Origin: Candidatus Bathyarchaeia archaeon
GTDB taxonomy: Archaea > Thermoproteota > Bathyarchaeia > Bathyarchaeales > Bathycorpusculaceae
Assembly: GCA_038883775.1 (NCBI GenBank)
Contig: JAVZLM010000004.1
Location: 96,001 to 160,000, forward strand
Direction: 5' to 3'
DNA: 64,000 nucleotides
Shown here: piece after piece, positions 1,070 through 52,251 of the stretch
How the letters are laid out: the number at the start of each line of letters is the position of its first letter
Position numbering within the stretch: the stretch's first letter is position 1
Program-made: the position numbers and the translations under genes
The notes under the pieces: generated by a model
Told to the model about the DNA's origin: nothing
The model's database searches: none
The model's input: the letters and a program-made list of their open reading frames with translations, nothing else

Positions 1070-1506
1070 GTGAAAAAACAGAATTTGAGCCGAAAATAAT
1101 TGGTTTCCTATGTAATTGGTGCTCCTATGCAGGCGCAGACTTGGCTGGAGTAAGCAGAATCCAATATCCACCGAACATTAGAATAATTCGTGTAATGTGC
1201 AGTGGCAGAATTGACCCCATATTCATTCTCGAAGCTTTGAAGGATGGCGCTGATGGAGTGCTTGTTGCTGGATGCCATTTGCCCTCAGATTGCCATTATA
1301 TTAGTGGGAACTTTAAAGCTTTAAGAAGGATAACTCTATTAAAGAAAGTTCTAAAAGATTTCGGGATTGAACCTGAACGTGTGCGGTTGGAATGGGTCTC
1401 CGCAAGCGAAGGAGACAAGTTCGCCGCCATAGTTCGGGACATGGTTGAGCAAATAAAAAAGTTGGGACCAAACCCATTGAAAATGGGAGGAAAAAGGAAT
1501 GAGTGA
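1066..1506 (+). CDS. mvhD: Methyl-viologen-reducing hydrogenase delta subunit ([2Fe-2S])
   Basis: FLCNWCSYAGADLAG, RVMCSGRIDP, GCH..DCHY and WVSASEG motifs. Confidence 0.95.
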   Translation: MSEKTEFEPKIIGFLCNWCSYAGADLAGVSRIQYPPNIRIIRVMCSGRIDPIFILEALKDGADGVLVAGCHLPSDCHYISGNFKALRRITLLKKVLKDFGIEPERVRLEWVSASEGDKFAAIVRDMVEQIKKLGPNPLKMGGKRNE

Positions 1507-2941: not shown

Positions 2942-2942
2942 A

Positions 2943-3926: not shown

Positions 3927-5377
3927 AGAACATAATTATTGACCCAATAACGAGACTTGAAGGTCACGGAAAAATCTCCATATTCTTGAATGATGATGGA
4001 GAAGTTGAAAACGCTTACCTGCAAATTCCAGAGCTTAGGGGCTTCGAAAGATTCTGTATTGGAAGAAAAGCCGAGGACATGCCCCTTTTGACTAGCAGAA
4101 TATGTGGTGTCTGTCCAGTTGCCCACCACATGGCTGGAACAAAAGCCTTAGACGCCGCCTTCAATGTGGAACCGCCATCTGCAGCGAAAAAACTCAGAGA
4201 ACTCATGTACTGCGGCTATTACATTTACGACCATACACTGCACTTCTACTATCTTGGCGGTCCAGATTTTGTGGTTGGTCCGGATGCTCCGCCTGAAAAG
4301 AGGAATATCATTGGCGTCATTGAAAAGGCTGGGTTAGACGTCGGCAAAGAAGTTATAAAGCATAGGGCTTATGGGCAGAGAATAACAGAAATAATTGGTG
4401 GAAAGGCAACGCATCCCGTTTGTGGAATTCCGGGCGGAATTTCTAAGCCATTAAGTGAAGAGGATAGGCAAGAAATTGAGAAAATGGCTTCTTCAGCCGT
4501 AAATTTTGCAAAGTTTTCGCTGAAACTTTTCCATGACATTGTTCTTGGAAACAGTAAATATGTTGATTTGATTAAGAGCGATGCTTATACGTTGAAGACT
4601 TATTATATGGGTTTGGTTGATGAAAACAACAAAGTGAACTTTTACGATGGCAAAATTAGAGTAGTAGACCCAAACGGCAAGGAATTCGTGAAATTCGAAG
4701 CAAAAAACTATCTTGACCACATTGCTGAACATGTGGAAGAATGGACCTACGTCAAATTCCCATACCTAAAGAAAATTGGCTGGAAAGGCTTCGTGGATGG
4801 CCCACAGAGCGGAGCATACCGTGTTGGACCCCTCGGAAGGCTTAACGCTTCAGACGGTATGGCTACACCCTCTGCACAAGAAGAATACGAGTTTATGTAT
4901 AAAACCCTTGGCGGAAAACCAGTACACTCAACACTTGCTTACCATTGGGCTAGACTTATTGAATTGCTTTATGCTGCTGAAAGAGCCTTGGAATTAAGCA
5001 AAGACCCAGAAATAACAAGCAAGGATGTGCGCAACAAGCCAGGCGAACCCGGCGAGGGCATAGGGGTTGTTGAAGCAGCTAGGGGAACTCTAATTCATCA
5101 TTATGTTTTGGATGGGAATGCACTGATAAAAGATGTGAACTTGATAGTGGCAACTGTCAATAATAGTCCATCAATAAACATGTCCATTCGGAATGCTGCT
5201 AAAGGCTTAATCCACGGCGATAAAGTTGACCAGGGAATACTCAATATGGTGGAAATGGCTTTCAGAGCCTACGACCCATGTTTTGGATGCGCAACACATT
5301 TTGCAGTTGGACAAATGCCATTAACAATTGAAATTTATGATAGTGATAAGAAGCTCTTGAAAACTGTGCATAGATAA
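3923..5377 (+). CDS. mvhA: [NiFe] hydrogenase group 3c large subunit
   Basis: TRLEGHG, L1 motif RICGVC, L2 motif RAYDPCFGCATH followed by a cleavable C-terminal extension. Confidence 0.94.
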   Translation: MKNIIIDPITRLEGHGKISIFLNDDGEVENAYLQIPELRGFERFCIGRKAEDMPLLTSRICGVCPVAHHMAGTKALDAAFNVEPPSAAKKLRELMYCGYYIYDHTLHFYYLGGPDFVVGPDAPPEKRNIIGVIEKAGLDVGKEVIKHRAYGQRITEIIGGKATHPVCGIPGGISKPLSEEDRQEIEKMASSAVNFAKFSLKLFHDIVLGNSKYVDLIKSDAYTLKTYYMGLVDENNKVNFYDGKIRVVDPNGKEFVKFEAKNYLDHIAEHVEEWTYVKFPYLKKIGWKGFVDGPQSGAYRVGPLGRLNASDGMATPSAQEEYEFMYKTLGGKPVHSTLAYHWARLIELLYAAERALELSKDPEITSKDVRNKPGEPGEGIGVVEAARGTLIHHYVLDGNALIKDVNLIVATVNNSPSINMSIRNAAKGLIHGDKVDQGILNMVEMAFRAYDPCFGCATHFAVGQMPLTIEIYDSDKKLLKTVHR

Positions 5378-5402
5378 ACAGTTTCTCCTTATTTCATTTT
5401 GT

Positions 5403-5915
5403 TTGATGGCGTTTCTTTTGGGCGAAAGAAAGAGCGAAATAAAAAAACAGTTGAAGAAGTGGTTTTCAGACGCTGAAAGGGTTGTTGTAGCTGGAATTGG
5501 AAATCCGATACGCATGGATGATTTTGTAGGCGTATTCGTTGTTCAAAGTTTGCGTGGAAAAGTTTCTGATAAGGTTTTGTTGATCGAATGTGAAACTGTT
5601 CCCGAAAGTTACATCCAACAAATTATAGAGTTTAACCCAACACATATTCTCTTAATAGATGCTGCAATCTTAGGATTACAACCGGGAGAAACAAAACTTT
5701 TAAAACCAGAAGAGTTGGCAAATTTTCCTGCATTCACAACACACATGCTTCCTTTGCGAATTTTCTGTGAATATTTGACCAAAATGACAAGGGCGAAAAT
5801 CGCTTTGCTTTTAATAGAGCTCGAGAAAACCGATTTTGGAGAAGGCTTAACTGCTAAAGTTGCAGACTTCGCAAAAAGGCTTGTGGAGATATTATCTATA
5901 TTGCTGAGGTCATAA
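5403..5915 (+). CDS. hycI: Hydrogenase maturation endopeptidase (HycI-like)
   Basis: GIGNPIRMDDFVG, ETVPE, LIDAA and TTHMLPL motifs; directly follows mvhA. Confidence 0.88.
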   Translation: MMAFLLGERKSEIKKQLKKWFSDAERVVVAGIGNPIRMDDFVGVFVVQSLRGKVSDKVLLIECETVPESYIQQIIEFNPTHILLIDAAILGLQPGETKLLKPEELANFPAFTTHMLPLRIFCEYLTKMTRAKIALLLIELEKTDFGEGLTAKVADFAKRLVEILSILLRS

Positions 5916-9957: not shown

Positions 9958-11826
9958 TTATTCCTCCGTCTTCTTTGTTTTCTCTTCAACTATGTAGATG
10001 AGGTCTTCCATGCCTAGTCCTTTCAGTTTCTCTATTGTGGGTATGCCTTCCCTGTTCCATCCGCGAGCCATGTAATAATCATCCAATAATAAGTCAAGCT
10101 CTTCTTGGCTTACGTAGGCTCCTTTTGATGGTCCCTCATCCGGAATTGGCTGGTGCATAACCTTATAGGGTAATGTGTCATCCTTTCTGCCTAAGCCTTC
10201 TCTGATGTTGAATAATCTGGCAACATTGTTTATTCTCTCGCCACAGCGCCTTATCTCTTCGGGTGAAGTTTCGAATCCAGTAACCAACGAGTAAAGTTTA
10301 GCCAAGTCTTCCGCTTCTTTATAGTATGTTCCCCTTGAGAATTTGCAAATGATTAAGGAGTCAATAATAGTGTACATGTCCTCCATGTCCTTAACCATTC
10401 TTCCTCTGCCTTTCTCAGCTACTAAGCGGTTGACTTTGCCCTTTACGTCGAAAGCGTAGGCTCCATGTCTATTGTGGTCTGCCCCACGGAAGGAAACGGC
10501 AAAGCCTAAGGCAGCTGTTTTTAAGGCTCTTAGGTCGTAACCTGTAACTTCTACTCCCTTGATGTGTTGAGCTAATTTTTCTGCGCCTTTACCTATTTTC
10601 TCTCCTGCAATTTTTACTCCTTCGGCCAGTATGTCGCCTATTCCTTCCCGTTTTCCTATTTTTTCAATTAGTTTAACTAGGGCTTCGTGATTGCCGAAGC
10701 GTGCTTCTATTCCGTTCATGTCTTTTTCAGTTAATATGCCATTTTCGTAACAATCCATGGCGAAACCAACAATTACGCCGGCGCTTATGGAGTCTATACC
10801 GTAATAGTTGCAGAGTTCGCATCCCTTTATTATAGCGTCAAGGCGATCTACTCCACAATATGGTCCCAATGCCCATAATGGTTCATATTCAACCCGAGAC
10901 ATGGCACCTTTGTATGGTCCTTCTGGAACAACAGCAATGTGTTCACATCGCATGGCGCAAGAGCTGCATCCTATGATTTTGGCAACAAATCTTTCATTTA
11001 GGGTTTCCCCGCTGACTCTTTCTGCTGCTTCAAAGCGTGAATTGTTGTAGTTTCTTGTTGGCATACACGAAAGCGCATTGTGAACCAAAACATTTTCCGG
11101 TGTGCCTAAAGTTCTGTATTTTTGTGTGGCTGGGCCTTTCATTCTTTCATGAAATTCCTTAACAAATTCCATAAATTCATCAGGTTTCGCCACGGTAATG
11201 TCATGAGTTCCGCGAACGGCGATTGCCTTAAGATTTTTTGAACCCATAACTGCACCCAGTCCGCATCTGCCAGCAGCCCTTGTCTTTTCGTTAATTATAC
11301 ATGCTATTCTAACGAGTTTTTCTCCTGCAGGTCCTATAGCTGCAACACGAATGTAATAGTCGCCTAACTCTTCTTTTATGGTGTCTTCTGTTTCGGCTGG
11401 TGATTTACCCCACAAGTGTGAGGCATCTAAAATTTGAACTGAATCATCGTCTATCCAAACGTAAACAGGTTTCTCAGCTTTGCCCTTGAAAATCACCGCG
11501 TCATATCCAGCCCTTTTTAGTTCTGTTCCAAAAGACCCGTGGGACTTTGACTCTCCGACTCCATGGCTTTGAGGCGATTTTGAAACAAAGGCATGTCCGT
11601 TTCCGCCAGTTGGCCAGACTGTTCCTGAGATGGGTCCTGTTGTTAGGATTAATGGGTTTTCTGGGCTGAAGGGGTCTACGCCAGCTTTTGAGTAGTCAAG
11701 CCAGAGGCGCATTCCTAAGCCTATGCCGCCAATATATTTTTTTGCGTAATCTTCATTTAATGGTTCAACATGGGTTTTTCCTGTTGTTAGATCTATGTGG
11801 AGTACTCTTCCAGCATATCCGTACAA
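9958..11826 (-). CDS. aor: Tungsten-dependent aldehyde:ferredoxin oxidoreductase family protein
   Basis: YGYAGRVL.IDL, AAGRCGLGAVMGSKNLKAI, GCSSCAMRC, EYE and G.DSIS.G motifs. Confidence 0.92.
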   Translation of the reverse strand: MYGYAGRVLHIDLTTGKTHVEPLNEDYAKKYIGGIGLGMRLWLDYSKAGVDPFSPENPLILTTGPISGTVWPTGGNGHAFVSKSPQSHGVGESKSHGSFGTELKRAGYDAVIFKGKAEKPVYVWIDDDSVQILDASHLWGKSPAETEDTIKEELGDYYIRVAAIGPAGEKLVRIACIINEKTRAAGRCGLGAVMGSKNLKAIAVRGTHDITVAKPDEFMEFVKEFHERMKGPATQKYRTLGTPENVLVHNALSCMPTRNYNNSRFEAAERVSGETLNERFVAKIIGCSSCAMRCEHIAVVPEGPYKGAMSRVEYEPLWALGPYCGVDRLDAIIKGCELCNYYGIDSISAGVIVGFAMDCYENGILTEKDMNGIEARFGNHEALVKLIEKIGKREGIGDILAEGVKIAGEKIGKGAEKLAQHIKGVEVTGYDLRALKTAALGFAVSFRGADHNRHGAYAFDVKGKVNRLVAEKGRGRMVKDMEDMYTIIDSLIICKFSRGTYYKEAEDLAKLYSLVTGFETSPEEIRRCGERINNVARLFNIREGLGRKDDTLPYKVMHQPIPDEGPSKGAYVSQEELDLLLDDYYMARGWNREGIPTIEKLKGLGMEDLIYIVEEKTKKTEE

Positions 11827-11902
11827 GATTTTTCCTCCAAGCTTAGCTTAAGAAAAGTATAAGGTGTAAAGCTGGTTATATTAATTTAATGGTTCGCTTC
11901 GC

Positions 11903-13468
11903 TTAAACCGCTTCTTTCAAGAGTTCTAATATATCTTTCACCACAATCTTACCTTCTACATCCAAAACCTTCACAGCATCCTCCAACGTTGTCACACAAA
12001 ATGGGCAAGCGGTTGCTATAACTTCAACGCCCAAGGCTAAGGCTTCTTTAAGCCGCTCCACACCGGGTCTCTTTTCTGGAACCGCCTCCTCAGTCCAAAC
12101 TCTTCCAGCACCTCCACCGCAGCAGAAGCTGTTTTGTCTTATCCTTTTCATTTCTACAAGTTCTAAGCTATTTATGGACTGTAGAATTTGTCTGGGGGCA
12201 TCGTAAATGTTGTTTCGTTTTCCAAGGAAGCATGGGTCATGGTATGTCACTTTTTTCTTTATTGTTTTAGTAGGTTTTAGTTTACCCTTGTTTATGGCTT
12301 CAACTAAAAACTCGGTGTAATGTTGAACGTTAAGTCCCGCATCCTTGTAGGGCTGGTCATTTTTGAAACTATTATAGCAGTGGGGCGACAAAACCACAAT
12401 TCTTTCAGCATTAAACTTCTTTAAAAAGTCAATATTATGTACTGCTAGTTCTTCGAAAAGCCCTTTTTCGCCTAATCTGAGGATGTGGTCTCCGCAGCAC
12501 CACTCCTCAGCGCCCAATGTTGCATAGTTAATGTCCATTTTATCCATTAGCGACGCCATAGATTTAGCCATCTCTTGATTTCGCATATCATAAGCAGCGG
12601 AACAACAAACGAAATATAAAATGTCAGCCTTTGCCACTTCTGGAAAAGTTTTAACGTTTAAGCCCTTAGCCCATTCCATTCTTTTGCTTTGATGGGTTCC
12701 CATGGGGTTATGATATTTGATTACGCTTTCCAAAACATCCTTAACGGTTCTGGGTATGACTCCGGATTCTACGAGGAGGCTGCGGTTGTCAACTATGGCA
12801 TTGGAGCAGTTAACCAGTTTTGGACAGAACATTGTGCATGAATTGCATGAGGTGCAAAGCCAAACGTTGTCTGCCATGGGTTTTAACCTTTCATCTAAAC
12901 CTTCATCCCTAGAGTCAGCTATAAAGCGGTAGTTAGCAGTTAATGTTGATGGACCAAGGAATTTTTGGTCGATGGCTGCTGGACAAGCGGAATAACAAAT
13001 GGAACATTTGGTGCAAAGCGTCAAGTCCCAATACTTTTTCAAGTCCAATTGACTTTGCACGAATTCCACAAGCTTGTTAAGCTCCGCCTCGGGCTTTATC
13101 AAAAATTTCTTAATTTTCTTGAAAGTGTCAAAGAAGGGTTCAATGTCAACAATTAAATCTTTTATAACTGGCAGGTTCGATAAAGGCGCCAATTCAAGCG
13201 TGTCAACGCCAAGGTCGAGAACCTGCGTATAACATGCTAGCATTGGTTGCCCATTAACGTTGATTCCGCAGCTTCCACAAATACCCATCCTACAAGAATG
13301 TCTGAAGGAGAGCGTTTCATCAATATTGTCTCTGATGTATTGGAGGGCCTCAAGGATGCTTGTTCCCTTGCGAATGGGGACCTTATATGTGGATACGTAA
13401 TGCTTTTTAGTTTGAGGGTCAAAGCGATTTATCCTAAACTCAACAATTTTCTCCACTTTAGAGCTCAT
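11903..13468 (-). CDS. Succinate dehydrogenase/fumarate reductase Fe-S subunit fused to two CCG domains (TfrB-like)
   Basis: SCRMGICGSCG..LAC [2Fe-2S] motif, CTKCSICYSACP, CTSCNSCTMFCP, then WCCG..PHC and YHDPC..FCCGGGAG..ACPFC. Confidence 0.88.
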   Translation of the reverse strand: MSSKVEKIVEFRINRFDPQTKKHYVSTYKVPIRKGTSILEALQYIRDNIDETLSFRHSCRMGICGSCGINVNGQPMLACYTQVLDLGVDTLELAPLSNLPVIKDLIVDIEPFFDTFKKIKKFLIKPEAELNKLVEFVQSQLDLKKYWDLTLCTKCSICYSACPAAIDQKFLGPSTLTANYRFIADSRDEGLDERLKPMADNVWLCTSCNSCTMFCPKLVNCSNAIVDNRSLLVESGVIPRTVKDVLESVIKYHNPMGTHQSKRMEWAKGLNVKTFPEVAKADILYFVCCSAAYDMRNQEMAKSMASLMDKMDINYATLGAEEWCCGDHILRLGEKGLFEELAVHNIDFLKKFNAERIVVLSPHCYNSFKNDQPYKDAGLNVQHYTEFLVEAINKGKLKPTKTIKKKVTYHDPCFLGKRNNIYDAPRQILQSINSLELVEMKRIRQNSFCCGGGAGRVWTEEAVPEKRPGVERLKEALALGVEVIATACPFCVTTLEDAVKVLDVEGKIVVKDILELLKEAV

Positions 13469-13481
13469 ACACGCACCACCT

Positions 13482-15182
13482 CTAATAGGTTCTCGCTGCT
13501 GGCTGCCACTTAGTTATCGTGACAGGAATATACTCCAGCCTTGGTCCTTCCTTCGTATAATACGCCAACGTATGTTTTAACCAGTTTACATCATCACGTT
13601 TTGGATAATCAATTCTCGAGTGAGCTCCTCTGGATTCGATTCTGGCAAGCGCACTTACTATGGTTACTTCTGCAAGTTCCAACATGAAATCAAGCTGCAA
13701 GGCATCCACCAAACCAGTGTTGAATGGTCCACCTTTATCCTGAACCTTTATATGCTTGAACCTCTCCTTAAGGGTTCTTACTTCTTTTAAGGCGCTTTCC
13801 AGTTGGTCGCCTCTTCTGAATATCCAAACCTTCTCGTTCATAATGTGCCGCATCTCATCCCTAATAACTGGAACTCTTTCGCTGCCTTCGCTGCCCAAAA
13901 TTCCATCAAAAACCCTTTTTTCCTCCGCCAAAAGTTTCTCTTGTGATATTTCTTTTAGACTATTTGATAAGGCATGTTTAGCCGCTTCTTCTCCAGCCAC
14001 CGCTCCAAAAACAAGACATTCCGCTGTTGAGTTTGTTCCAAGCCTATTGGCTCCGTGAAGGCTTAGGCATGAGCACTCGCCAGCAGCATACAAGCCAGCA
14101 ATTGGCGTTTCAGTTTTTATATTAGCCCTTATCCCTCCCATGGAATAGTGGGCTGCAGGTCTTATTGGAATGGGCTCTTTAACAGGGTCAACTCCGCCAA
14201 GTTTTATGGCAACTTCCCGAATAAGCGGCAACCTCTCGTTTATTTTTTCCTCACCCAAATGCCTCAAGTCTAAAGCTATATAAGGTCCATAAGGGCCTTC
14301 TAATCCGCGGCCTTCGTTAATTTCTGTTTGTTCAGCCCTTGAAACCACATCTCGGGGAGCCAGCTCCATTTTTTCTGGAGCATAATTTTTCATGAAACGT
14401 TCGCCTTTTGCGTTAATTAGGTATCCGCCTTCGCCTCTGGCTCCCTCAGTTATCAGCGCACCAGATGGAACCAAACCCGTCGGATGGAATTGGACAAATT
14501 CCATATCCATCAATGGAGCTCCAGCACGGTAAGCCATAGCCATTCCATCACCGGTGGTTGTGTAGGAGAATGTTGTAAACTCATATATGCGCTCGTGTCC
14601 TCCAGTTGCGATAACTATGGCTTTAGCTTGAAAGGCATGCATTTCTCCAGTTTTCAGTTCTATGGCTGTTAAGCCAGTTGCTGTATTATTTTCAACTGTT
14701 AGGGATGTGGCGAACCATTCATCATAAAATTTAATGTTACTGTATGAGGTGGCTTTTCCGTAAAGCGTGTGCATTTCATGAAAGCCAGTCATATCAGCTG
14801 CAAAACAAGCTCTAGGATATGTGTGACCTCCAAATGGGCGTTGGTCTATTTTCCCATCTGATGTGCGGCTCCAAGGCAATCCCCAATGTTCTGTTAAAAC
14901 TATTTCTTTAGGCGCTTGTCTTACAAAAAATTCCACAACATCTTGGTCTGCTAAATAATCAGCTCCTTTAATTGTGTCGAAAGCATGTAAGTCATAGGAA
15001 TCCTTTTCTCGCATTACTGCCGCCGTGCCGCCTTGAGCGCAAACAGAATGGGAGCGTAAAGGATGAAGTTTGGATATTACTGCAATGTCAAGCTTATTGC
15101 TTACTTCAGCCGCTGCAATGGAAGCCCTTAGACCAGCCAAGCCAGCTCCAACAATGATTATGTCGTGGGCATAATTCTCCAT
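13482..15182 (-). CDS. sdhA: Succinate dehydrogenase/fumarate reductase flavoprotein subunit
   Basis: [16 protein letters not shown] (covalent-FAD His), [33 protein letters not shown] and ESRGAH motifs. Confidence 0.92.
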
Positions 15183-15319
15183 TATTGTTCACCATTTAAG
15201 AGACTACGTAAATTTTGCAATCCAGCCTTTATATTTTTCTGGTTTTGTACGAAAATCTTATTTTAAAGTGAAATTAAGTGCTGGTAAACTAAAACGCGCA
15301 ATCCTTGGGGAGACTTAAA

Positions 15320-17227
15320 ATGGTGCAAAAAGTGCCTAAAATAGAAATTTCGCAGAAATTGAAACTAATGCTTCAGAGGGCTTTGGAAAATCCCGAAAAC
15401 TTCTGGGGCGGAATAGCTGGGGAGTTGCATTGGTTTAAGAGGTGGGATAAGGTTTTCGAATGGAACTATCCAAACTTCACTTGGTTTAAGGGTGGAATAA
15501 CAAATCTCTCTTACAACTGCACAGAACATCATGTAGAAAATGGAAGGGGTAATCGTACTGCAATAGTATGGGAGAACGGTGAAGGATTACCTTCCCGCAA
15601 ACTAACCTACCAGCAACTTCTGGACGAAGTTAAAAAGTTCGCTGCTGGGTTGAAAGCATTAGGAGTTGAAAAAGGCGATAGAGTAACAATATACATGCCG
15701 ATGATTCCAGAAGCAGCAGTCGCCATGTTAGCAACCACAAGAATTGGAGCAATCCACTCAGTCGTCTTTGGAGGCTTCGGCTATGGCGCTTTAGCAGATA
15801 GAATCGCTGATGCAGAGCCAAAAGTTATTGTCACGGCTGATGTTGGTTTCAGACGTGGAGAAACAATTAACTTAAAGACCGTTGTGGACGAAGCTCTGAA
15901 AACTTGTGGAAAAAGTGTGAAAAAGGTCATTGTCTTGAAACGAGGTGAGCATGATCCACCAGTGACCTTGGGAAGGGATATGCTTTGGGAAGAAGTCATC
16001 GAAAAAGGGAAAGACATAAATGCTGAAGCTAAAAAGATGCGAGCAGATGAGTTGGCTTTTATCCTTTACACTTCTGGAACCATGGCTAAGCCTAAAGGCA
16101 CAGTTCAACCCCACGGAAGCTATCAGGTTTACATTTACGCCATGGGCAAGTGGGTTTACGACTTAAATGAGAATGATGTTTGGTGGTCGACCTCTGACAT
16201 AGGTTGGATTGTGGGGCACAGCTATGTTGTTTATGCGCCATTACTTTTTGGCTGCACAACAATAATGTATGAAGGAGTTCCAGACTATCCCACACCAGAC
16301 GTTTGGTGGCAAATAATCGAAAAGAATCATGTTACAAAACTTTGGATATCACCCACAGGCGTACGCACTTTAATGAAATATGGTGATGAATGGCCCAAAA
16401 AACATGATTTAAGCTCCGTCAAACTCGTAGTTTGCGCAGGGGAAGTTCTAAACCCGCCAGCTTGGGAATGGCTTCAAAAGAAAGTCTTTCAGGACAAGGT
16501 TCCAGTCATTGACCACATGTGGCAAACCGAAAGCAGCGGTCCAATGGTTGGCAACCCTTACGGCATTGAGCTACTACCTACAAAACCCGGCTCCGCAACC
16601 ATTCCGCTTCCAGGAATTGACGCCGAAATAGTTGACGAAAACGGAAAACCAGTCCCTCCCGGTGTTGAGGGAATATTTGTATGCAAAAAGCCCTTTCCAG
16701 GTTTGACGCCTACTCTTTGGCGGGATCATGAACGTTATGTAAATGATTACTGGAATAGGATTCCAGGCGTTTATTATACCGGCGACGCAGCAATTAAAGA
16801 TGAGGATGGTTACATCTGGTTTTTGGGAAGGGTGGATGAAGTTATCAAGATTTCAGGGCATAGAATTGGCACAATTGAAATTGAAAGCGCTCTGCTTGGG
16901 CATCCCGCTGTTGCTGAGGCAGCGGTTGTGGGGCGCCCAGATCCTTTAAGAGGCGAAACCGCCTGTGCATTTATTGTTTTAAGGCATGGATATGAGCCGA
17001 ACAGTTTATTAAAGGATGCTTTGCGAAAGTTGGTTAAGGAAACTTTGGGACCAATAGTAATTGTTAGCGACATATTCTTTGTGGCTAGGCTTCCTAAAAC
17101 AAGAAGTGGTAAGATAATGCGGCGTCTTATTGGAGCATTAATAGCGGGCAAACCTTTAGGAGATTATTCAACGATCGAAGATGAAACAGCTATAGAAGAG
17201 ATTAAAAAAGTCATAAGCCAGCATTAA
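15320..17227 (+). CDS. AMP-forming acetate/propionate--CoA ligase (Acs/PrpE family)
   Basis: YTSGT.AKPKG, DIGWIVGHSY, WQTE, YYTGD and LPKTRSGKIMRR motifs. The start is either ATG 15320 or TTG 15305. Confidence 0.9.
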   Translation: MVQKVPKIEISQKLKLMLQRALENPENFWGGIAGELHWFKRWDKVFEWNYPNFTWFKGGITNLSYNCTEHHVENGRGNRTAIVWENGEGLPSRKLTYQQLLDEVKKFAAGLKALGVEKGDRVTIYMPMIPEAAVAMLATTRIGAIHSVVFGGFGYGALADRIADAEPKVIVTADVGFRRGETINLKTVVDEALKTCGKSVKKVIVLKRGEHDPPVTLGRDMLWEEVIEKGKDINAEAKKMRADELAFILYTSGTMAKPKGTVQPHGSYQVYIYAMGKWVYDLNENDVWWSTSDIGWIVGHSYVVYAPLLFGCTTIMYEGVPDYPTPDVWWQIIEKNHVTKLWISPTGVRTLMKYGDEWPKKHDLSSVKLVVCAGEVLNPPAWEWLQKKVFQDKVPVIDHMWQTESSGPMVGNPYGIELLPTKPGSATIPLPGIDAEIVDENGKPVPPGVEGIFVCKKPFPGLTPTLWRDHERYVNDYWNRIPGVYYTGDAAIKDEDGYIWFLGRVDEVIKISGHRIGTIEIESALLGHPAVAEAAVVGRPDPLRGETACAFIVLRHGYEPNSLLKDALRKLVKETLGPIVIVSDIFFVARLPKTRSGKIMRRLIGALIAGKPLGDYSTIEDETAIEEIKKVISQH

Positions 17228-17303
17228 AATATGCCTCATTTTTGGTAAACGCTTTATAATGTGTTTAACATGACATTTAAAAATCTATGAGAGGTGAAAA
17301 ACG

Positions 17304-17705
17304 ATGTTTATAGGCGTTGACCATGTGGGCGTGGCAGTTAAAAATCTGGACGAGGCTATTAGCATTTACCAAAATGTTTTAGGCTTTGAACTCGAAGGCG
17401 TTCACGTTTTAAGTGAGAGGAAGGTTAAGGTTGCTTTTCTATTTAGCGGCGGCGAAACCAGAATTGAGCTTTTAGAGCCTTTGGGTAGCGATAGCCCAGT
17501 TGCCAAGTTTCTTGATAGTCGAGGTGAAGGCATTCATCACATCGCTGTAAAAGTTGAGAATATTGAGGCTGTTTTGGATGATTTTAAGCGTAAAGGTGTG
17601 GTTTTAGTTGATGAGAAGCCAAGAATTGGAGCTGAAGGCGCAAAAATTGCCTTTGTTCACCCGAAAAGCACAAAGGGAGTGCTTTTGGAGTTAATAATGA
17701 AGTAA
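17304..17705 (+). CDS. mce: Methylmalonyl-CoA epimerase
   Basis: VOC fold: [35 protein letters not shown]. Confidence 0.92.
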
Positions 17706-17713
17706 GTGATTGT

Positions 17714-18832
17714 TTGAATCAAACTAAAATTGCCCTTTCCATCCAATTCTTCCACTCCTTTGTCAGCGGCATTCTTGGAGTCGCCATACCCTTAATGATG
17801 AAAGAAAGGAATGTGGATGTTGTCGTTATAGGACTTATCTTCGCGGCTATGCCCTTGATTATGCAGTTTGGGCGAATGTTTTTTGCAACACTTTCAGATT
17901 TTTTGGGCAGAAACCTCTTCTTTATTTCTAACGGGGTTTTAGGCGTAATTTCAAGTCTAATCTACTATGTTGCGCGGACACCACTAGAATTCTTGTTCGG
18001 CAAACTAATGGAGGGAACCAAAGAGGGTTCAATTTGGGCTGTGAACAGGGCTTTTCTTTTAGAGAGAGAAGGGGGTCACTGGAGAATTTTAGTTTACCTA
18101 AGAACGGTAGTTTATGTTGGCTTCGCCCTTGGAAGTCTGCTTACTGGCTTTTTGGTTGCTTGGCTATTTTTTGATGGAACAATGTTGTTATGCGCTCTTC
18201 TTGGAGTTTTTGTATTCTCGTTGGCGCTGTTGCTGCCTAAAGAAAGAAAAGAACAGTTTAGCATGGTGAAGGCTTTGCAGTTTCTAGATTTCAGAAAGAA
18301 AAAGAAAATTTTCAAAATCTTCCTCTTTCTGTTTTTTATAATAGGTCTTTCCTATGGGTTTCGAGGAAGCTTTGTCATACCACTTTTCTTGGACATGTAT
18401 GGTTTCGACACCGAAATAATTGGACTAATTATAGGCTTACAGATCTTGTTTGCTGGCTTTTCTTCATACCTCTTTTCGAAAACCACTAAGTTAAGGCAGA
18501 TGATTCTTCTACAAGGTATTCTCTTTTCCACAGTCTTCTTTTCGCTTGGCTTTTTAAGTTCTATAGTTGCCGGGGTTCTTTTGGTTGTTTATGGCTTTAT
18601 TGAGGGAATGTCAGGCATCGGACAAGAGGGAATTTTGTCCAAAATCTGCGATAAAGAGTCTTATGGAACCGATATTGGCTTGCTAATGTTTGGGTTGCAT
18701 GTTGGCGAAACCATGAGTTTGGCTTTATCAGGCTTTCTTATTGAAAGATGGGGTTTCCTTGCTCCCTTCCTCTTGGCGGCTTCAACATACGCAATTTTCT
18801 ACATACCCTCATACACTATTCTGAAAGAGTGA
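17714..18832 (+). CDS. MFS transporter
   Basis: About 12 hydrophobic segments and a motif-A-like LSDFLGR. Confidence 0.8.
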   Translation: MNQTKIALSIQFFHSFVSGILGVAIPLMMKERNVDVVVIGLIFAAMPLIMQFGRMFFATLSDFLGRNLFFISNGVLGVISSLIYYVARTPLEFLFGKLMEGTKEGSIWAVNRAFLLEREGGHWRILVYLRTVVYVGFALGSLLTGFLVAWLFFDGTMLLCALLGVFVFSLALLLPKERKEQFSMVKALQFLDFRKKKKIFKIFLFLFFIIGLSYGFRGSFVIPLFLDMYGFDTEIIGLIIGLQILFAGFSSYLFSKTTKLRQMILLQGILFSTVFFSLGFLSSIVAGVLLVVYGFIEGMSGIGQEGILSKICDKESYGTDIGLLMFGLHVGETMSLALSGFLIERWGFLAPFLLAASTYAIFYIPSYTILKE

Positions 18833-18835
18833 ACA

Positions 18836-19627
18836 ATGTTGAAAATTGACAAAATTCAAGAAAAGCTTCAAACCAAAAAAATTGGTAAAAAAATACTATA
18901 CTTGCACAAAACTGGCTCCACAAACGACATAGCCAAAAAATTAGCTAATTATGGAGCCTATGAAGGAGCAATTGTTATAGCGGAAACCCAAACCGCCGGA
19001 CGAGGAAGACTTGATAGAAAATGGTTTTCGCCAAAAGGCGGACTATATTTTTCAATTATTCTAAAACCAAAAATAAAAGCAAAAGAATCCATTAAACTCG
19101 TGTTCTTGGCTGGTTTGGCTGTAGCAGAAGTTCTGCATGAAAAATATGGGTTGCATGTGGAAACTAAGTGGCCAAACGATGTTTTAGTGAGGGGACGTAA
19201 GATTTGCGGGATACTAAGTGAAATGAAGACAAGAGGCGAAAAGGTGGACTATGCAGTAATAGGCTTAGGTATAAATGCAAACGTTGATGTTAAAAAAGAG
19301 TTTCCGGAAGAGCTGAAAACTGTTGCAACATCCATTGAAAATGAGTTAGGTAGAAAAGTTAAGCTGGAAGAACTGCTTAAAGTGTTGCTTGAGAAATTGG
19401 AAAATGTTTATGAACAGTTTACAAAGGAAGGATTCGCTCCAGTTTTGAGGAGATGGAAAGGATATGCGAGTTTTCTTGGCAAAAATGTGGAAGTCATAAA
19501 TGATGTTGGAAAGATGTATGGTTTAGCCTTAGATGTTGACAATGATGGAACATTGCTCGTTAGGCTTGAAGATGGAAGAGTAGAGCATGTGTTTGTTGGG
19601 GACGTTTCTCTGCAGATAAATAAATGA
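18836..19627 (+). CDS. birA: Biotin--protein ligase (no HTH domain)
   Basis: STN, QTAGRGRLDRKW.SP, KWPND and KICGIL.E motifs. Confidence 0.93.
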   Translation: MLKIDKIQEKLQTKKIGKKILYLHKTGSTNDIAKKLANYGAYEGAIVIAETQTAGRGRLDRKWFSPKGGLYFSIILKPKIKAKESIKLVFLAGLAVAEVLHEKYGLHVETKWPNDVLVRGRKICGILSEMKTRGEKVDYAVIGLGINANVDVKKEFPEELKTVATSIENELGRKVKLEELLKVLLEKLENVYEQFTKEGFAPVLRRWKGYASFLGKNVEVINDVGKMYGLALDVDNDGTLLVRLEDGRVEHVFVGDVSLQINK

Positions 19628-19753
19628 ATCTTTCGTAACTTTCGTTTTCATGGATTTAAATCCTTAATTAAGCCAGAACCTAACCGTATCTTTAGCCTTT
19701 CCGTATATTCTAAATATTTGAGCTACATTACCTAAAAGCAAGAGGGATTTGAA

Positions 19754-21322
19754 ATGGCTTTGGCGAAAGAGCCTAGTGTTGAGGAAAAGATTAACCGTTT
19801 AAGGGAATTGAATGAGCAAGCTAAACTTGGCGGTGGACAAAAGCGCATTGAAGAGCAACATGCTAAAGGTAAGTTAACAGCCAGAGAACGTATTGAATTG
19901 TTGCTTGATCCTGGCAGTTTCAATGAGCTTGACCGTTTTGTGGTTCATCAATGCACAGAATTTGGCATGGCGGAACGCAAATATCTCGGCGACGGCGTTG
20001 TAACTGGCTACGGCACAATTGACGGCAGACTTGTCTACATTTTCAGTCAAGACTTCACTGTTTTTGGTGGTTCCTTGGGTGAAATGTTTGCAAAAAAAGT
20101 TTGTAAAATAATGGATTTAGCCATAAAAGCTGGAGCGCCAGTCATAGGCTTAAATGACAGCGGTGGTGCACGCATACAAGAGGGCGTGGCAAGCCTTGCT
20201 GGTTACGGAGATATTTTCTTCCGCAACGTCATAAGCTCAGGTGTAATTCCACAGATAAGCGCTATAATGGGTCCATGCGCTGGCGGAGCCGTCTATTCGC
20301 CCGCACTAACAGACTTCATAATTATGGTTGACAAGACAAGTCACATGTTTATCACTGGTCCAGATGTGGTTAAAGCTGCTTTGGGGCAGGAGGTTACGTT
20401 TGAAGAGTTGGGCGGCGCCATGGTGCATAGCACAACCAGCGGTGTAGCCCATTTTATAGCCCAAAGCGAAGAGCATTGTATGCAGATTATTAAGAAACTT
20501 TTGAGCTATTTGCCAAGCAATTATCTTGAAGACCCGCCAGCAGTAGAGCCCACAGATGACCCAGACCGTACCGATGAGGATTTGGCGAGAATTCTTCCAG
20601 ATGACCCGGACAAGCCTTATGATGTTAAGGAGGTTATTACTCGTGTGGTTGATAATGGCGAATTCTTTGAGATTCAGCCCCTTTGGGCGCAGAACATTGT
20701 TATTGGTTTTGCAAGGTTGAATGGCAAAACAGTAGGCATAGTGGCTAACCAACCGTTGCATTATGCTGGAGCCCTAGACATAAACAGCAGCATGAAAGCG
20801 GGACGCTTCATACGCTTCTGCGACTGCTTCAACATCCCAATAATAACATTCGTAGACGTGCCAGGATTCTTGCCAGGTCTTGAACAGGAACACGGCGGAA
20901 TAATAAGGCATGGCTCAAAACTTTTATACGCTTATTGCGAAGCTACTGTGCCAAAAATCACCACTATACTGCGCAAAGCTTATGGTGGAGCATATGACGT
21001 TATGGGCTCCAAACATTCAGGGGCAGACATAAACTATGCTTGGCCAACAGCCGAAATAGCCGTTATGGGACCTCAAGGCGCCATAAACATAATTTTCCGA
21101 AAGGAAATAACTGAGGCTGAAAACCCAGAGCAAAAACGGATGGAACTTGTAAGCGAATATCGCCAAAAATTTGCAAATCCATATGTGGCAGCCCAGAAGG
21201 GCTATATAGATGAGGTGATTGAACCAGCAGAAACAAGACCAAAACTCATCAGTGCATTAGAAAGCCTAATCATGAAAAGAGAGCCTAGACCATCCAGAAA
21301 ACATGGAAATATACCATTATAG
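19754..21322 (+). CDS. Methylmalonyl-/propionyl-CoA carboxyltransferase (PccB / MmdA / transcarboxylase 12S-like)
   Basis: [47 protein letters not shown] and KHGNIPL motifs. Confidence 0.93.
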
Positions 21323-21382
21323 ATTAATAGTAGCTCAGCCATTCTTTCAAACTCTAAAAATACTAGAGGGGCTAGGCAATTT

Positions 21383-22924
21383 ATGGCTTCGAAACCAGTT
21401 AAAATCACCGACACCACATTTAGAGACGCTCATCAGTCGCTTATGGCTACAAGGATGCGCACTGATGCCATGCTTCCCATAGCTGAAAAAATTGACAAAG
21501 TTGGCTTTTTCTCTTTGGAAATGTGGGGAGGAGCCACATTCGACGTTTGCATACGCTATTTAGGCGAAGACCCGTGGGAAAGAATACGCCAACTAAAACG
21601 CCACATAAAAAGAACCCCGCTTCAAATGCTGTTGCGGGGACAAAACATAGTTGGCTATCGCAATTATCCAGATGATGTTCTCATAAAATTTGTTGAGAAG
21701 GCGGCTGAAAATGGCATAGACATATTTCGAGTTTTTGACGCCTTAAACGACGTAAGAAACATGGAAGTGGCCATAAAAACCGTTAAAAAAATGGGCAAAC
21801 ACGCTCAAGGAACTATTTGCTACACTATAAGCCCAGTTCACACAATCCAATATTATGTTAAAGTTGCAAAAAAATTGACAGAACTCGATTGTGATTCTAT
21901 ATGCATAAAGGACATGGCTGGAATGCTTGCGCCTCAGCCAGCCTATGAGCTTATAACTGCCCTAAAAAAGGAGATAAGCCTACCCATACATTTGCACAGT
22001 CACAGCACAAGCGGCATGGTTATGATGACATACCTCCGAGCATGCGAAGCTGGAGTAGACATAATAGACGCAGCCTTTTCACCTTTCGCATGGGGTACAT
22101 CACAACCGCCAGTAGAATCCATCGTAGCTGCTTTAAAGGGAACCCCGTACGACCCGGGACTTGACTTGGAATTTTTAAGCGAGATTGCAGATTACTTCCG
22201 AGAGTTACGAGAAAAATATTATGACCCTTTAAAGTTAATAGATCAAAAAGCTGAACGGGTTGACACGTCCATCATTGTGCATCAGATTCCGGGCGGAATG
22301 TTCTCCAACCTTCTCGAACAATTAAGGGAACAAAAAGCGCTTGACAGGTTAAAGGAGGTTCTTGAAGAAGTTCCGAGGGTTAGAAAAGAGTTGGGTTATC
22401 CTCCTTTAGTAACGCCTACAAGTCAGCTTGTGGGTATACAAGCCGTTTTTAACGTTATTTCTGGTAAACGCTACAGCATAGTGCCAAAAGAGATAAAGGA
22501 TTATGTGAAGGGCTTATATGGAAGACCGCCAGCCCCCATAGACCCTAAAGTGAAAAAGAAGATAATAGGCGATGAAGAACCCATAACTTGTCGTCCAGCT
22601 GACCTTTTAGAAAGTGCCCTTGACAAAATTCCTGAAGAAGTAAAACCCTACATCGAAAGTGAAGAAGACAAGATAACTTATGCGCTTTTTCCCCAAGTAG
22701 CCCTAGAATTCTTTAAAAAGAGAAAAGCAAAAAAGGAAGAAGCCAAAGCTGAAATTCCAACAGAAAGAATCACAGAGCTGGAGGACGTTGCCGCAGTCTC
22801 TGTGGCTGTTGTTACCTACATTAAAAGTTTGGGAAAAGCCAAAGCATTAATACCCGTGCGACCAAAGGGAATAACATCTGCTTGGGTTTTAGCTGGACGA
22901 AAAAGCTTCGAACTTGGTGTTTAA
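21383..22924 (+). CDS. Pyruvate/oxaloacetate carboxyltransferase lacking a biotinyl domain (transcarboxylase 5S / OadA / PycB-like)
   Basis: RDAHQSL, WGGATFD, MLLRGQN, IKDMAG, HSH, QIPGGM.SN and LVTPTSQ motifs; no AMKM motif. Confidence 0.9.
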   Translation: MASKPVKITDTTFRDAHQSLMATRMRTDAMLPIAEKIDKVGFFSLEMWGGATFDVCIRYLGEDPWERIRQLKRHIKRTPLQMLLRGQNIVGYRNYPDDVLIKFVEKAAENGIDIFRVFDALNDVRNMEVAIKTVKKMGKHAQGTICYTISPVHTIQYYVKVAKKLTELDCDSICIKDMAGMLAPQPAYELITALKKEISLPIHLHSHSTSGMVMMTYLRACEAGVDIIDAAFSPFAWGTSQPPVESIVAALKGTPYDPGLDLEFLSEIADYFRELREKYYDPLKLIDQKAERVDTSIIVHQIPGGMFSNLLEQLREQKALDRLKEVLEEVPRVRKELGYPPLVTPTSQLVGIQAVFNVISGKRYSIVPKEIKDYVKGLYGRPPAPIDPKVKKKIIGDEEPITCRPADLLESALDKIPEEVKPYIESEEDKITYALFPQVALEFFKKRKAKKEEAKAEIPTERITELEDVAAVSVAVVTYIKSLGKAKALIPVRPKGITSAWVLAGRKSFELGV

Positions 22925-22925
22925 A

Positions 22926-23480
22926 ATGCCAATTTACGAAGTCCTCATTGACGGCAAACCGAGAAAAATCGAGTTGACAAAGACTGGAGAGAACACTTTT
23001 TCAGTTATACTGGATGGAAAGCCTTTAAAGGTGGAGTTACCAGCTGAAAAGCTTACATTAGAAAAGGTTTTTTCAATAAAAATTGATGACAAAACATATC
23101 AAGTAAATTTGCCCGAACTAAAAAGGGAAGAGCCTTTTTCGGTCAAAGTTGAAGAGGCAGTTTTTAAGGCTGAAGTCAAAGCACCAACAAGAAAACCCAT
23201 ACCGACAACTTTTGAACCCACCACAGTAACGCCTACAATAAGACCGGTAGAAACAAAGCCAGCAGTGGAAGGAACTGTGACTGCGCCCATGACTGGAAAA
23301 ATTCTTTCAATAAAAGTCAAGAAAGGCGAACAAGTGAAAGCCGGTCAGGTTCTCTGCATTCTTGAAGCAATGAAAATGGAAAACGAGATTGCAGCCCCAA
23401 AAAGCGGAACCATTCAAGAAATACTCGTTTCTGAGGGTTCTTCAGTCAACGAAGGAGAAGCCCTCTTCATTATCGTTTAG
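22926..23480 (+). CDS. Biotin carboxyl carrier protein (1.3S / MmdC-like)
   Basis: EAMKMENEI biotinylation motif after a Pro/Thr-rich linker; ATG lies 1 bp after the previous stop. Confidence 0.93.
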
Positions 23481-25168
23481 AAAATGGAAGGTGGTTTATA
23501 CTCGCCGAAAACTTCCCGCAGAGTGTCGCAAATTTCTCCTATGGTTGCGTATTCTTTCACTGCTTGAATCATTAAGGGCATCAGATTCACATCTTCTTTC
23601 TCAGCAGCTAAGCGCAATTTATCCAAGGCTTCTTTAACTTTCGCCTGGTTTCTTTGCCGTTTTATTTGTTTTAAGCGTTCCACAAGCGTCTTTTCTATTT
23701 CTGGGTCTATCTGCAAAATTTTTATCGGCGTTTCCTCCTGCGTCACAAAATCGTTTACGCCAACAATTATGCGCTTCTTTGTTTCCACCTCTCTTTGGAA
23801 GCGATAAGCACTTTCCACGATTTCTCTTTGCATAAACCCTTTCTCGATGGCGGCAACAGCCCCTCCCATTTCATCAATTTTTTCAATGTATTTTGCCGCG
23901 CGTTCTTCTATCTCATTTGTCAAGTACTCCACATAATATGAGCCTGCAAGGGGGTCTATGGTTTCGGCTACTCCGCTTTCATAAGCTATTATCTGCTGGG
24001 TCCTAAGCGCAACCGTAACGGCTTGCTCGCTTGGCAAGGCATAAGCTTCATCAAAAGAGTTTGTATGCAAAGACTGGGTTCCACCCAAAACTGCAGCCAA
24101 AGCTTGAATGGCAACTCTGATAATGTTATTGTAAGGTTGCTGCGCCGTTAAGGCAACACCAGAAGTTTGTGTGTGAAAACGCAACATCCAAGATGCAGGG
24201 TTTTTGGCTTTGAAATGTTCTCGCATTATTTTAGCCCACAGCCTTCTGGCAGCTCTAAATTTGGCTATTTCTTCGAAGAAGTTGTTGTGGGCTGCGAAAA
24301 AGAAGGATAATCTTCCCGCGAACCTATCCAAATCTAAGCCCTTTTCGATGGCTGCTTGCACATAGGCGATGGCGTTTGCCAATGTGAAGGCTACTTCTTG
24401 AACGGCTGTTGCTCCCGCCTCGCGGATGTGGTAACCGCTTATGCTTATAGTATTCCATAGAGGCATGTGTTGAGAGCAATATTCGAATATGTCTGTGACT
24501 AAACGCATTGAGGGTTTAGGTGGAAAAATGTACATGCCCCTAGCTGCATACTCTTTCAAAATATCATTCTGCACTGTTCCCCCAAGCTGGGATGGTTCGG
24601 CGCCTTGTTTTTGTCCAACTGCTATGTACATGGCAAGCAAAACGGTTGCTGGAGCATTAATGGTCATGGAAGTTGTAATTTCTTTTAAGGGAATTCCGTC
24701 GAAGACTATTTCCATATCCATTAAAGTGCTAACGCTTACGCCAGCCCTTCCAACTTCGCCTCGCGCCATGGGGTGGTCGCAGTCATAACCCACTTGTGTT
24801 GGAAAGTCAAAAGCCACGCTTAAGCCTCTTTGACCTTGTTGGAGCAAGTATTTGAAGCGCTGATTAGTTTGTTCAGCCGTTCCAAAACCAGCATACTGCC
24901 TCATAGTCCATAGTCTAGCCCTATACATGGTCGGATAAACGCCACGAGTAAAGGGATATTCTCCAGGAAAACCCAAATCTCCTAAATAGTCAAGTTTTTC
25001 AATGTCAACGGGCGTATAAACCCTACTTACTGGGATTTCTGAACTTGTTAAAAATTCGCCTTTTTCTGGAAGCCTTTCAAGACTTTTAGATACGGTTTCT
25101 TTCTCCCACTTTTCCCTACGTTGTTTAATTTCTTCCATCATTTGCTTGTTAAACATCATTGAAAACAC
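23477..25168 (-). CDS. Methylmalonyl-CoA mutase, large (catalytic) subunit
   Basis: [39 protein letters not shown] and GGTQSLHTN motifs; no B12-binding DxHxxG domain. The true start may be 3-4 codons later. Confidence 0.93.
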
Positions 25169-52249: not shown

Positions 52250-52251
52250 AA

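Follow-up and report, generated by a model that had tools for sequence, protein, structure and literature searches.

Three adjacent genes of a Candidatus Bathyarchaeia archaeon probably code for a methylmalonyl-CoA:pyruvate transcarboxylase that is built from archaeal parts. They occupy 19754-23480 of the stretch that was analysed, positions 96,001-160,000 of contig JAVZLM010000004.1 (assembly GCA_038883775.1). This stretch of 64,000 nt is called the window throughout, and coordinates are those within it unless a contig is named. In our collection the genome carries the label G000 and the window is G000:C4:96001-160000. The assembly comprises 1.69 Mb in 28 contigs and is rated 91.4% complete and 5.1% contaminated. 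Genes were called from open reading frames (ORFs) and from Pfam and NCBIfam profile searches, subunit structures were compared by PDB search, and the locus was followed through a genus set of five genomes (87-93% complete) and an order-level sample of 121 genomes. The closest public loci, as judged by the 5S-type protein (79-84% identity), all belong to Candidatus Bathyarchaeia or Bathyarchaeota metagenome-assembled genomes (MAGs).

The three genes, and the gene for the biotin-protein ligase that precedes them, are as follows.

18836-19627, plus strand: BirA biotin-protein ligase without repressor domain (TIGR00121, 235.8 bits, cut-off 83)
19754-21322, plus strand: acyl-CoA carboxyltransferase of the 12S/PccB/MmdA fold (PF01039, 699.5 bits)
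21383-22924, plus strand: pyruvate/oxaloacetate carboxyltransferase of the 5S type, 513 aa (HMGL-like and PYC_OADA, no Biotin_lipoyl match)
22926-23480 (ATG start, 184 aa) or from 22914 (TTG start, 188 aa), plus strand: free biotin carboxyl carrier (Biotin_lipoyl, 84 bits)

A preliminary description of this DNA had reported an adjacent, co-oriented triad of a carboxyltransferase, a 5S subunit devoid of a biotinyl domain and a free carrier, and all three genes were recovered at these positions by ORF analysis and with both profile collections. In the carrier, a Pro/Thr-rich linker connects a beta-rich N-domain with an AMKM biotinyl domain, which has the motif EAMKME. Each of the four genes is single-copy among the 4,792 ORFs of the genome. 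With a subunit of 12S/PccB fold, a 5S subunit without biotinyl domain, a separate AMKM carrier and no biotin carboxylase, the locus corresponds in composition to the definition of a transcarboxylase (EC 2.1.3.1). The 5S-type subunit scores 575.3 bits against the NCBIfam equivalog for the 5S subunit (NF008984), below the cut-off of 827, and thus the enzyme is called a transcarboxylase by composition and not as a demonstrated orthologue of the Propionibacterium enzyme.

We propose the following mechanism. BirA would biotinylate the carrier, the 5S-type subunit would shift CO2 between oxaloacetate/pyruvate and the biotin of the carrier, and the 12S/PccB-type subunit would shift it between biotin and propionyl-CoA/(S)-methylmalonyl-CoA. 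Neither ATP nor a membrane subunit would be used. Together with the epimerase, the mutase, a soluble TfrAB-like fumarate reductase, SucCD, fumarase and malate dehydrogenase, such an enzyme would close a succinate-propionate pathway. Both the catalytic activity and the ability of one carrier to reach both carboxyltransferases are predicted from sequence. The ATP-independent transfer of carboxyl groups between methylmalonyl-CoA and pyruvate that had been suggested at the outset gains support at this level: the searches for biotin carboxylase and OadB, the reconstruction of the pathway and the comparison of gene order all came out in its favour.

Absence of biotin carboxylase and of a membrane subunit

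Neither a biotin carboxylase nor an OadB/MmdB subunit had been noticed in the window, and the same is true for the whole assembly. Profile searches of G000 gave 0 matches each for Biotin_carb_N, Biotin_carb_C and OAD_beta (PF03977), and a tblastn search with the biotin carboxylase of a relative gave a best E of 0.5. In 14 control genomes, these models matched in 13 (Biotin_carb_N), 13 (Biotin_carb_C) and 2 cases (OAD_beta, in line with expectation for this family).

Two types of candidates were rejected. Three ORFs of G000 that match PF02786 (ATP-grasp) are CPSase-like, RimK-like or MptN-like ligases according to NCBIfam and are not hidden biotin carboxylases; their best score against biotin carboxylase models is 44.8 bits with a cut-off of 739. 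A candidate for a second carrier, indicated by a weak tblastn match at C4:18023-18175, proved upon inspection of its sequence to be a lipoyl domain, part of an E2-type acyltransferase of 362 aa, and has no MKM motif. The product of 22926-23480 is thus the sole biotinyl carrier in G000.

The distribution among relatives is similar. All five genomes of the genus carry the 5S gene and none has a Biotin_carb_C match. In the order sample, PYC_OADA was found in 39 genomes, Carboxyl_trans in 41 and Biotin_carb_C in 23, while OAD_beta was found in none of the 121. The 39 genomes with a 5S gene split into 19 with and 20 without biotin carboxylase, and 19 of the latter retain the carboxyltransferase. 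Among the 20 are three genomes assembled into one contig (G058, G070, G106) and two that are rated 100% complete (G035, G116); a search of these five with a biotin carboxylase protein query returned nothing above 28.5 bits. Both slots which hold the biotin carboxylase in relatives, one between SdhA and the epimerase and the other between carrier and mutase, are contiguous sequence in the window and contain other genes. Because the genus has 0 of 5, the genus loci are collinear, and closed as well as 100%-rated relatives lack the gene, the missing biotin carboxylase is not explained by genome incompleteness.

The triad might nevertheless represent parts of ATP-dependent propionyl-CoA and pyruvate carboxylases, with the biotin carboxylase gene hidden in the unassembled 9% of the genome. 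The completeness of 91.4% leaves room for this, 19 of the 39 order genomes with a 5S gene do have the enzyme, and the 5S-type subunit and the carrier jointly align to full-length PycB. We consider it very improbable, given that the gene is missing from all genomes of the genus, that both of its usual slots are assembled without a break and filled by other genes, and that three closed relatives retain the triad without it.

Variants of the locus among relatives

The four genes belong to a group of eleven at 9958-25168, each of which is backed by profile matches. The other seven are the following.

9958-11826, minus strand: aldehyde:ferredoxin oxidoreductase (profile match)
11903-13468, minus strand: SdhB-type iron-sulfur subunit fused to two CCG (HdrB-like) domains, TfrB-like, 521 aa (Fer2_3, Fer4_8, two CCG)
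13482-15182, minus strand: SdhA-type flavoprotein subunit of a fumarate reductase/succinate dehydrogenase (FAD_binding_2, Succ_DH_flav_C; PRK06069, 884.9 bits, cut-off 826)
15305-17227, plus strand: AMP-forming acyl-CoA ligase of the acetyl-CoA synthetase type (AcsA equivalog, 786.3 bits, cut-off 725)
17304-17705, plus strand: methylmalonyl-CoA epimerase (TIGR03081, 165.9 bits, cut-off 115)
17714-18832, plus strand: MFS transporter within the operon (MFS_1, 91 bits)
23477-25168, minus strand, convergent with the carrier gene: large (substrate-binding) subunit of methylmalonyl-CoA mutase (TIGR00641, 840.7 bits)

The flanking genes named in the preliminary description (BirA, epimerase, mutase, ligase and a divergent Sdh/Frd pair) were each identified by profile match, and the locus proved to be syntenic in relatives. 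The ligase, which had been listed among the flanking genes, is a variable insert.

In relatives that have a biotin carboxylase, its gene lies within this locus, and a gene for a second carrier comes after it in every case (9 of 9 such loci). The commonest arrangement (e.g. in G067, G006, L010 and L011) starts with SdhB and SdhA, continues with biotin carboxylase, second carrier, epimerase, in some cases the MFS transporter, BirA, carboxyltransferase, 5S and first carrier, and ends with the mutase. A relative's enzyme passes the model NF006367 (644.6 bits, cut-off 597), which identifies it as a genuine biotin carboxylase. In 46 of 48 loci the first carrier gene comes after the 5S gene, the remaining two being cut off by contig ends, and the mutase large-subunit gene adjoins the carrier gene in most relatives. 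An SdhB-CCG gene is found beside the carboxylase genes also in L095, L102, L009, L011 and L139-L141.

In the window, the ligase gene fills exactly the slot of biotin carboxylase and second carrier. It is present in two of the four genus loci that cover this slot, namely the window and G124, the latter having the same locus including ligase and MFS genes. In the other two (G121, G122), SdhA faces the epimerase directly, with neither a ligase nor a biotin carboxylase in between. The slot is occupied by other ORFs in L009 and G116; we take their N-termini, read from the sequence and not by profile, to resemble the two subunits of GMP synthase.

The MFS gene is variable as well. It is kept in L010, L011 and G124, has been reduced to a 71-aa remnant ORF in G122 and is missing from G121. 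From its position between epimerase and BirA, biotin, succinate or propionate may be guessed as substrates.

Another configuration is seen in G055, G079 and G110, which carry biotin carboxylase and carboxyltransferase but have no 5S gene. This third type corresponds to a plain acyl-CoA carboxylase.

The state with biotin carboxylase and that without it both occur in each of three families (f1, f6, f7). Parsimony on a quick 5S gene tree yields 11 changes of state for 38 rows and at least 8 for 25 high-quality genomes. However, 18 of the 45 forks in this tree are unsupported, and because of this poor resolution we claim only at least three such changes, based on the taxonomic spread. A locus from the same family as the window (L093, G009:C4) shows one frameshift each in the biotin carboxylase and the second carrier (13640-15538), while the adjoining genes for carboxyltransferase, 5S and first carrier remain intact. 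This may represent decay in progress (pseudogenisation) or else an assembly error. The presence of biotin carboxylase and second carrier in this locus of many relatives means that the composition of a transcarboxylase is derived and has been reached repeatedly, and is not a fixed trait of the lineage.

In genomes that are free of biotin carboxylase, carboxyltransferase, 5S and carrier are full-length and 69-98% identical to the copies in the window. The retention of the triad and of BirA after loss of the biotin carboxylase is the strongest argument for a transcarboxylase. That carboxyltransferase, 5S, carrier and BirA stay intact after repeated loss of the sole ATP-using subunit points to cooperation of the three proteins without use of ATP.

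It might be objected that the triad is a functionless remnant which decays once the biotin carboxylase has been lost. Parts of the locus can indeed decay, as is evident from the frameshifted genes in G009 and from the 5S gene in G013, which is split into ORFs of 215 and 343 aa (L118, G013:C50, 6033-7580; this MAG is 86% complete). A remnant is hard to reconcile with the full length and the similarity of the triad genes in genomes without biotin carboxylase, with the occurrence of this state in at least three family-level groups, and with the retention of BirA, whose only substrate in the genome is this carrier. In addition, an alignment of eighteen 5S proteins, some from genomes that have biotin carboxylase and others from genomes that lack it, has a mean column identity of 75%, and its columns of catalytic type are invariant. 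The stretches conserved in 18 of 18 sequences include DTTFRDAHQS, KDMAG and HxH, which we take to be the sites of substrate, carbamyl-lysine and metal in enzymes of this class, an assignment made by motif and not by mapping to a structure. We thus regard a decaying remnant as highly unlikely.

A further short ORF was noticed in G106. It codes for 79 aa, is located just upstream of the 5S gene, and shows a weak match to the final 37 positions of the model for the carboxyltransferase (18.1 bits; G106:C1:1252495-1252605). The intact carboxyltransferase gene of this genome is 66 kb away, so that the ORF may be a relic of a rearrangement.

The two carriers and the enzymes encoded upstream of them share additional features. 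The last ca 60 residues of the 5S-type subunit (22682-22921 in the window) are homologous to the last ca 60 residues of the relatives' biotin carboxylase (hhalign, 98.6% probability, E 5.4e-16, 58 columns), and each of the tail-bearing enzymes has its own carrier gene directly after it. First and second carriers have the beta-rich N-domain in common and are 32-39% identical over their whole length. For this domain, sub-threshold matches to PCC_BT were obtained in 14 of 17 orthologues (best E 1.2e-5); the carrier from the window scores 17.5 bits, with a cut-off of 23.5, and covers profile positions 34-115 of 126. The tails match the C-terminus of OAD_gamma weakly in 7 of 27 sequences (best E 0.0016) and ACC_epsilon in 4 of 27, both of which we take to be subunit-association elements of biotin enzymes. 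PDB searches with profiles of the N-domain (best E 0.018) and of the tail (best E 0.48) gave no significant match, and structural look-alikes from the Atlas all score below 0.9 and serve as leads only. Outside the order there are only weak matches, with a best E of 8.5e-4 for the tail and of 2e-6 for the N-domain, the latter on a carrier from Thorarchaeota.

The 5S tail and the carrier N-domain may jointly make up a BT-like tether, by which each carrier is attached to the enzyme whose gene is upstream of its own. The carboxyltransferase could then be served either by biotin carboxylase and second carrier, acting as an ATP-dependent propionyl-CoA carboxylase, or by 5S and first carrier, acting as a transcarboxylase. 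Genomes without biotin carboxylase would retain the latter route alone.

Sequence affinities of the subunits

Several observations weigh against a transcarboxylase. Both catalytic subunits have closer relatives than those of the Propionibacterium enzyme. With 762 bits (1vrg), PccB-type enzymes come closer to the carboxyltransferase than the 12S subunit does (1on3, 623.6 bits over residues 8-521). For the 5S-type subunit, the beta subunit of two-subunit pyruvate carboxylase (5ks8_C, 567 bits) and OadA (2nx9, 531 bits) are nearer relatives than 5S of Propionibacterium (1rqb, 479 bits over residues 4-484); besides falling short of the 5S equivalog, the archaeal subunit passes the NCBIfam model for the oxaloacetate decarboxylase alpha subunit (743.8 bits, cut-off 718). 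The carrier, which matches 1.3S (1dcz) with 57.5 bits, is unlike that subunit in having 184 aa and an extra N-domain. G000 itself is 91% complete with 5% contamination. The 19 order genomes in which 5S and biotin carboxylase coexist, often in the same locus, are a further point, since there the same proteins may serve ATP-dependent carboxylases. A weak point of the proposed mechanism is whether the carboxyltransferase accepts the carrier encoded next to 5S.

The affinity to decarboxylases deserves separate attention. The carboxyltransferases could act as a methylmalonyl-CoA and/or oxaloacetate decarboxylase, with the help of a membrane partner that escaped recognition, or else without conserving energy. 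In NCBIfam, the carboxyltransferase comes near to MmdA (876.9 bits, below the cut-off of 998.8), the 5S-type subunit passes the OadA model as mentioned, and some tails have the weak resemblance to OAD_gamma. The operon also codes for a membrane protein, the MFS transporter, but we know of no MFS protein that acts as a carboxybiotin decarboxylase, and with the triad intact the gene is absent from G121 and a remnant in G122. The beta subunit is missing from G000 and from the entire order sample, and two carboxyltransferases sharing one carrier would transcarboxylate anyway. We therefore consider a decarboxylase unlikely, and return to the transcarboxylase as the probable product of the locus.

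The order of carboxyltransferase, 5S and carrier genes is widespread. Clear cases among 75 other loci are from Methanomassiliicoccaceae (L027) and another lineage of Bathyarchaeota (L066). In bacteria, the triad was found in Anaerolineae (L039, L046, L062), in an Acidobacteria MAG (L058) and in an unclassified bacterial MAG (L041); L039 carries mutase and epimerase genes besides the triad. Thorarchaeota loci L037 and L044 have 5S-carrier pairs.

Pathway, direction and relation to known systems

The remaining components of the pathway, for which the preliminary description had proposed a search beyond the window, are all encoded elsewhere in the genome. The B12-binding subunit of the mutase is on contig C3 together with MeaB and a second mutase large subunit, both subunits (alpha and beta) of succinyl-CoA synthetase (SucCD) are on C5, a two-subunit class I fumarase (FumAB) is on C9, and malate dehydrogenase is on C1. 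By these assignments, no enzyme is missing from the methylmalonyl-CoA pathway that links pyruvate/oxaloacetate with propionyl-CoA. G000 also has several paralogues of ADP-forming acyl-CoA synthetase, and a malic enzyme, so that the transcarboxylase is not the sole link between C3 and C4 compounds. Searches of G000 found neither an archaeal phosphoenolpyruvate (PEP) carboxylase nor a GTP- or ATP-dependent PEP carboxykinase. A CoA-transferase of the AcetylCoA_hydro type (PF02550), the one CoA-transferase family searched for, was not found either.

The contig region with the second mutase genes has a near duplicate. The whole of contig C27 (5.4 kb) is 90.6% identical at the DNA level to C3:121987-127431, which holds the second large and the B12 subunits, and the encoded proteins are 97% identical. 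C27 is probably a strain variant that was binned into the MAG, which fits the contamination estimate of 5%.

The fumarate reductase/succinate dehydrogenase is of a soluble type. SdhA is single-copy in the genome, and no membrane anchor is encoded next to the pair: the neighbours of the SdhB-CCG gene are SdhA and the aldehyde:ferredoxin oxidoreductase, not SdhC/D. SdhB-CCG has the architecture of TfrB, a part with 2Fe-2S and 4Fe-4S clusters fused to two CCG domains. It belongs to the NCBIfam dhsB subfamily, and the scores against the methanogen TfrAB equivalogs remain below the cut-offs (TfrB 317.9 bits against 385, TfrA 500.3 against 718). Ca 6 kb upstream, HdrC-like, HdrB-like and NiFe hydrogenase genes and a maturation protease are encoded (1499-5915) in the following cluster.

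194-5915: Mvh/Hdr-like cluster, which includes a 4Fe-4S protein besides the genes below
1499-2053: HdrC-like protein
2054-2941: HdrB-like protein with two CCG domains
2943-3926: NiFe hydrogenase small subunit
3923-5377: NiFe hydrogenase large subunit
5403-5915: HycI-type protease

A second pair of NiFe hydrogenase large and small subunits is encoded at 33575-35847 on the minus strand. Other genes in the window are a P-type ATPase with a YHS domain (31206-33326), a ribonucleotide reductase with an ATP-cone (41409-43535) and SecY (59441-60850). The latter is preceded by a run of co-directional small ORFs (52189-58991), which is probably a ribosomal protein operon.

As to the direction of the pathway, we lean slightly towards reductive, propionate-forming operation, because the fumarate reductase is of the soluble CCG/Hdr type and the Hdr/NiFe hydrogenase cluster is located 6 kb upstream. 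The opposite direction has a little less than an even chance, provided that the enzyme is a transcarboxylase: propionyl-CoA would receive its carboxyl group from oxaloacetate, and its oxidation would lead through succinate to pyruvate. Propionyl-CoA could arise from propionate through the ligase or from the breakdown of Val, Ile, Met, Thr and odd-chain compounds. Consumption of propionyl-CoA is favoured by the AMP-forming AcsA-type ligase in the operon of the window and G124, and by the apparent ancestry of the carboxylating direction, as the relatives' biotin carboxylase and second carrier would form a propionyl-CoA carboxylase with the carboxyltransferase. SucCD would in addition yield ATP from succinyl-CoA. 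The ligase, however, is missing from the slot in G121 and G122, and it passes the model for acetate and not that for propionate (PrpE, 638 bits with a cut-off of 955). The CCG/Hdr-type enzyme for succinate/fumarate, with no gene for a membrane or quinone anchor nearby, is likewise difficult to reconcile with oxidation, as the oxidation of succinate with an acceptor of the thiol/disulfide type would be strongly uphill by redox potentials.

These elements can be combined into a tentative scenario, which as a whole we consider rather unlikely. Bathyarchaeia may run a Wood-Werkman-type cycle, in which an ATP-free transcarboxylase transfers the carboxyl group from methylmalonyl-CoA to pyruvate and is coupled to a soluble fumarate reductase of the Hdr/CCG type, with H2 as its feed via the neighbouring Hdr-hydrogenase genes. 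Repeated loss of the biotin carboxylase and its dedicated carrier would have turned a hybrid locus for propionyl-CoA/pyruvate carboxylase, in place, into one for the transcarboxylase. This enzyme would be held together by a split BT-like tether, formed by the 5S tail and the beta-barrel N-domain of the carrier, an arrangement that is found in no solved biotin enzyme.

Among the uncultured archaea in anoxic sediments and soils, Bathyarchaeia rank with the most abundant. If they have an ATP-free succinate-propionate pathway, they would produce or consume propionate, a key intermediate in anaerobic carbon flow. Close relatives which differ in biotin carboxylase and carrier represent a natural experiment on the origin of a transcarboxylase from ATP-dependent carboxylases, and the paired loci provide matched gene sets for biochemistry. 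Automatic annotation probably labels the 5S-type subunit as "oxaloacetate decarboxylase alpha" or "pyruvate carboxylase subunit B", in which case the function is missed in metabolic reconstructions.

No characterised archaeal example had been known to the preliminary description, and we found none in the literature searched. However, a propionate pathway linked to a transcarboxylase has already been proposed from genomes for Asgard archaea, the only archaea for which we found such a proposal. Passages of Imachi et al. 2020 (PMC7015854) on propionate metabolism in this group invoke a carboxyltransferase of the methylmalonyl-CoA decarboxylase type, a biotin carrier, a subunit of the pyruvate carboxylase type and a "transcarboxylase-associated" biotin ligase, and state that no Asgard member encodes a complete set for syntrophic degradation. 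Asgard archaea are a different phylum with, according to these passages, an incomplete set, whereas the full methylmalonyl-CoA pathway is present here. For Bathyarchaeia, no description of a transcarboxylase was found in the full-text literature searched; the supplements of PMC7015854, which were outside this search, may bear on the question. A 2022 survey (PMC9802188) reports, in the part concerned, a 3-hydroxypropionate/4-hydroxybutyrate cycle in three MAGs from a different family of Bathyarchaeia, which illustrates that such carboxylase, epimerase and mutase genes can be interpreted in another way.

The closest functional parallel is the transcarboxylase of Propionibacterium freudenreichii (12S, 5S and 1.3S; PDB 1on3, 1rqb, 1dcz). 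Like the locus described here it has three parts, has neither a biotin carboxylase nor a membrane subunit, and operates in a succinate-propionate pathway with epimerase and mutase. Its subunits are not the closest sequence relatives of either catalytic subunit of the archaeal locus. Unlike its 5S subunit, the archaeal one has a tail that is shared with the relatives' biotin carboxylase and is absent from the solved structures, and the archaeal carrier of 184 aa has a BT-like N-domain whereas 1.3S is a short protein. The transcarboxylase of the syntrophic and sulfate-reducing propionate oxidisers Pelotomaculum, Syntrophobacter and Desulfobulbus, strict anaerobes that are likened here by pathway and not by sequence, follows the same logic in oxidative use. 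In these bacteria succinate oxidation is tied to membrane menaquinone systems, while the enzyme for fumarate/succinate in the window is of the soluble CCG type.

With respect to homology, the triad belongs with the archaeal acyl-CoA carboxylases (AccC/AccB/PccB of Sulfolobales and Thaumarchaeota) and with PycA/PycB (PDB 5ks8). The carboxyltransferase is homologous to PccB, the 5S-type subunit to the carboxyltransferase domain of PycB, and the carrier to AccB and the C-terminus of PycB. The AccC- or PycA-containing carboxylases have an ATP-grasp biotin carboxylase, which is lacking in this genome and genus, and unlike PycB, which is a single protein, the 5S-type subunit and the carrier are separate. 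The Na+-translocating OadABG and MmdABCDE systems are alike in having an alpha-type carboxyltransferase and a carrier, and share the weak OAD_gamma-like motif of the tail, but their beta subunit was not found here. What is new is the coexistence of locus variants with and without biotin carboxylase and second carrier, and the variant in the window is best described as coding for a putative archaeal, locally evolved transcarboxylase in a complete succinate-propionate pathway.

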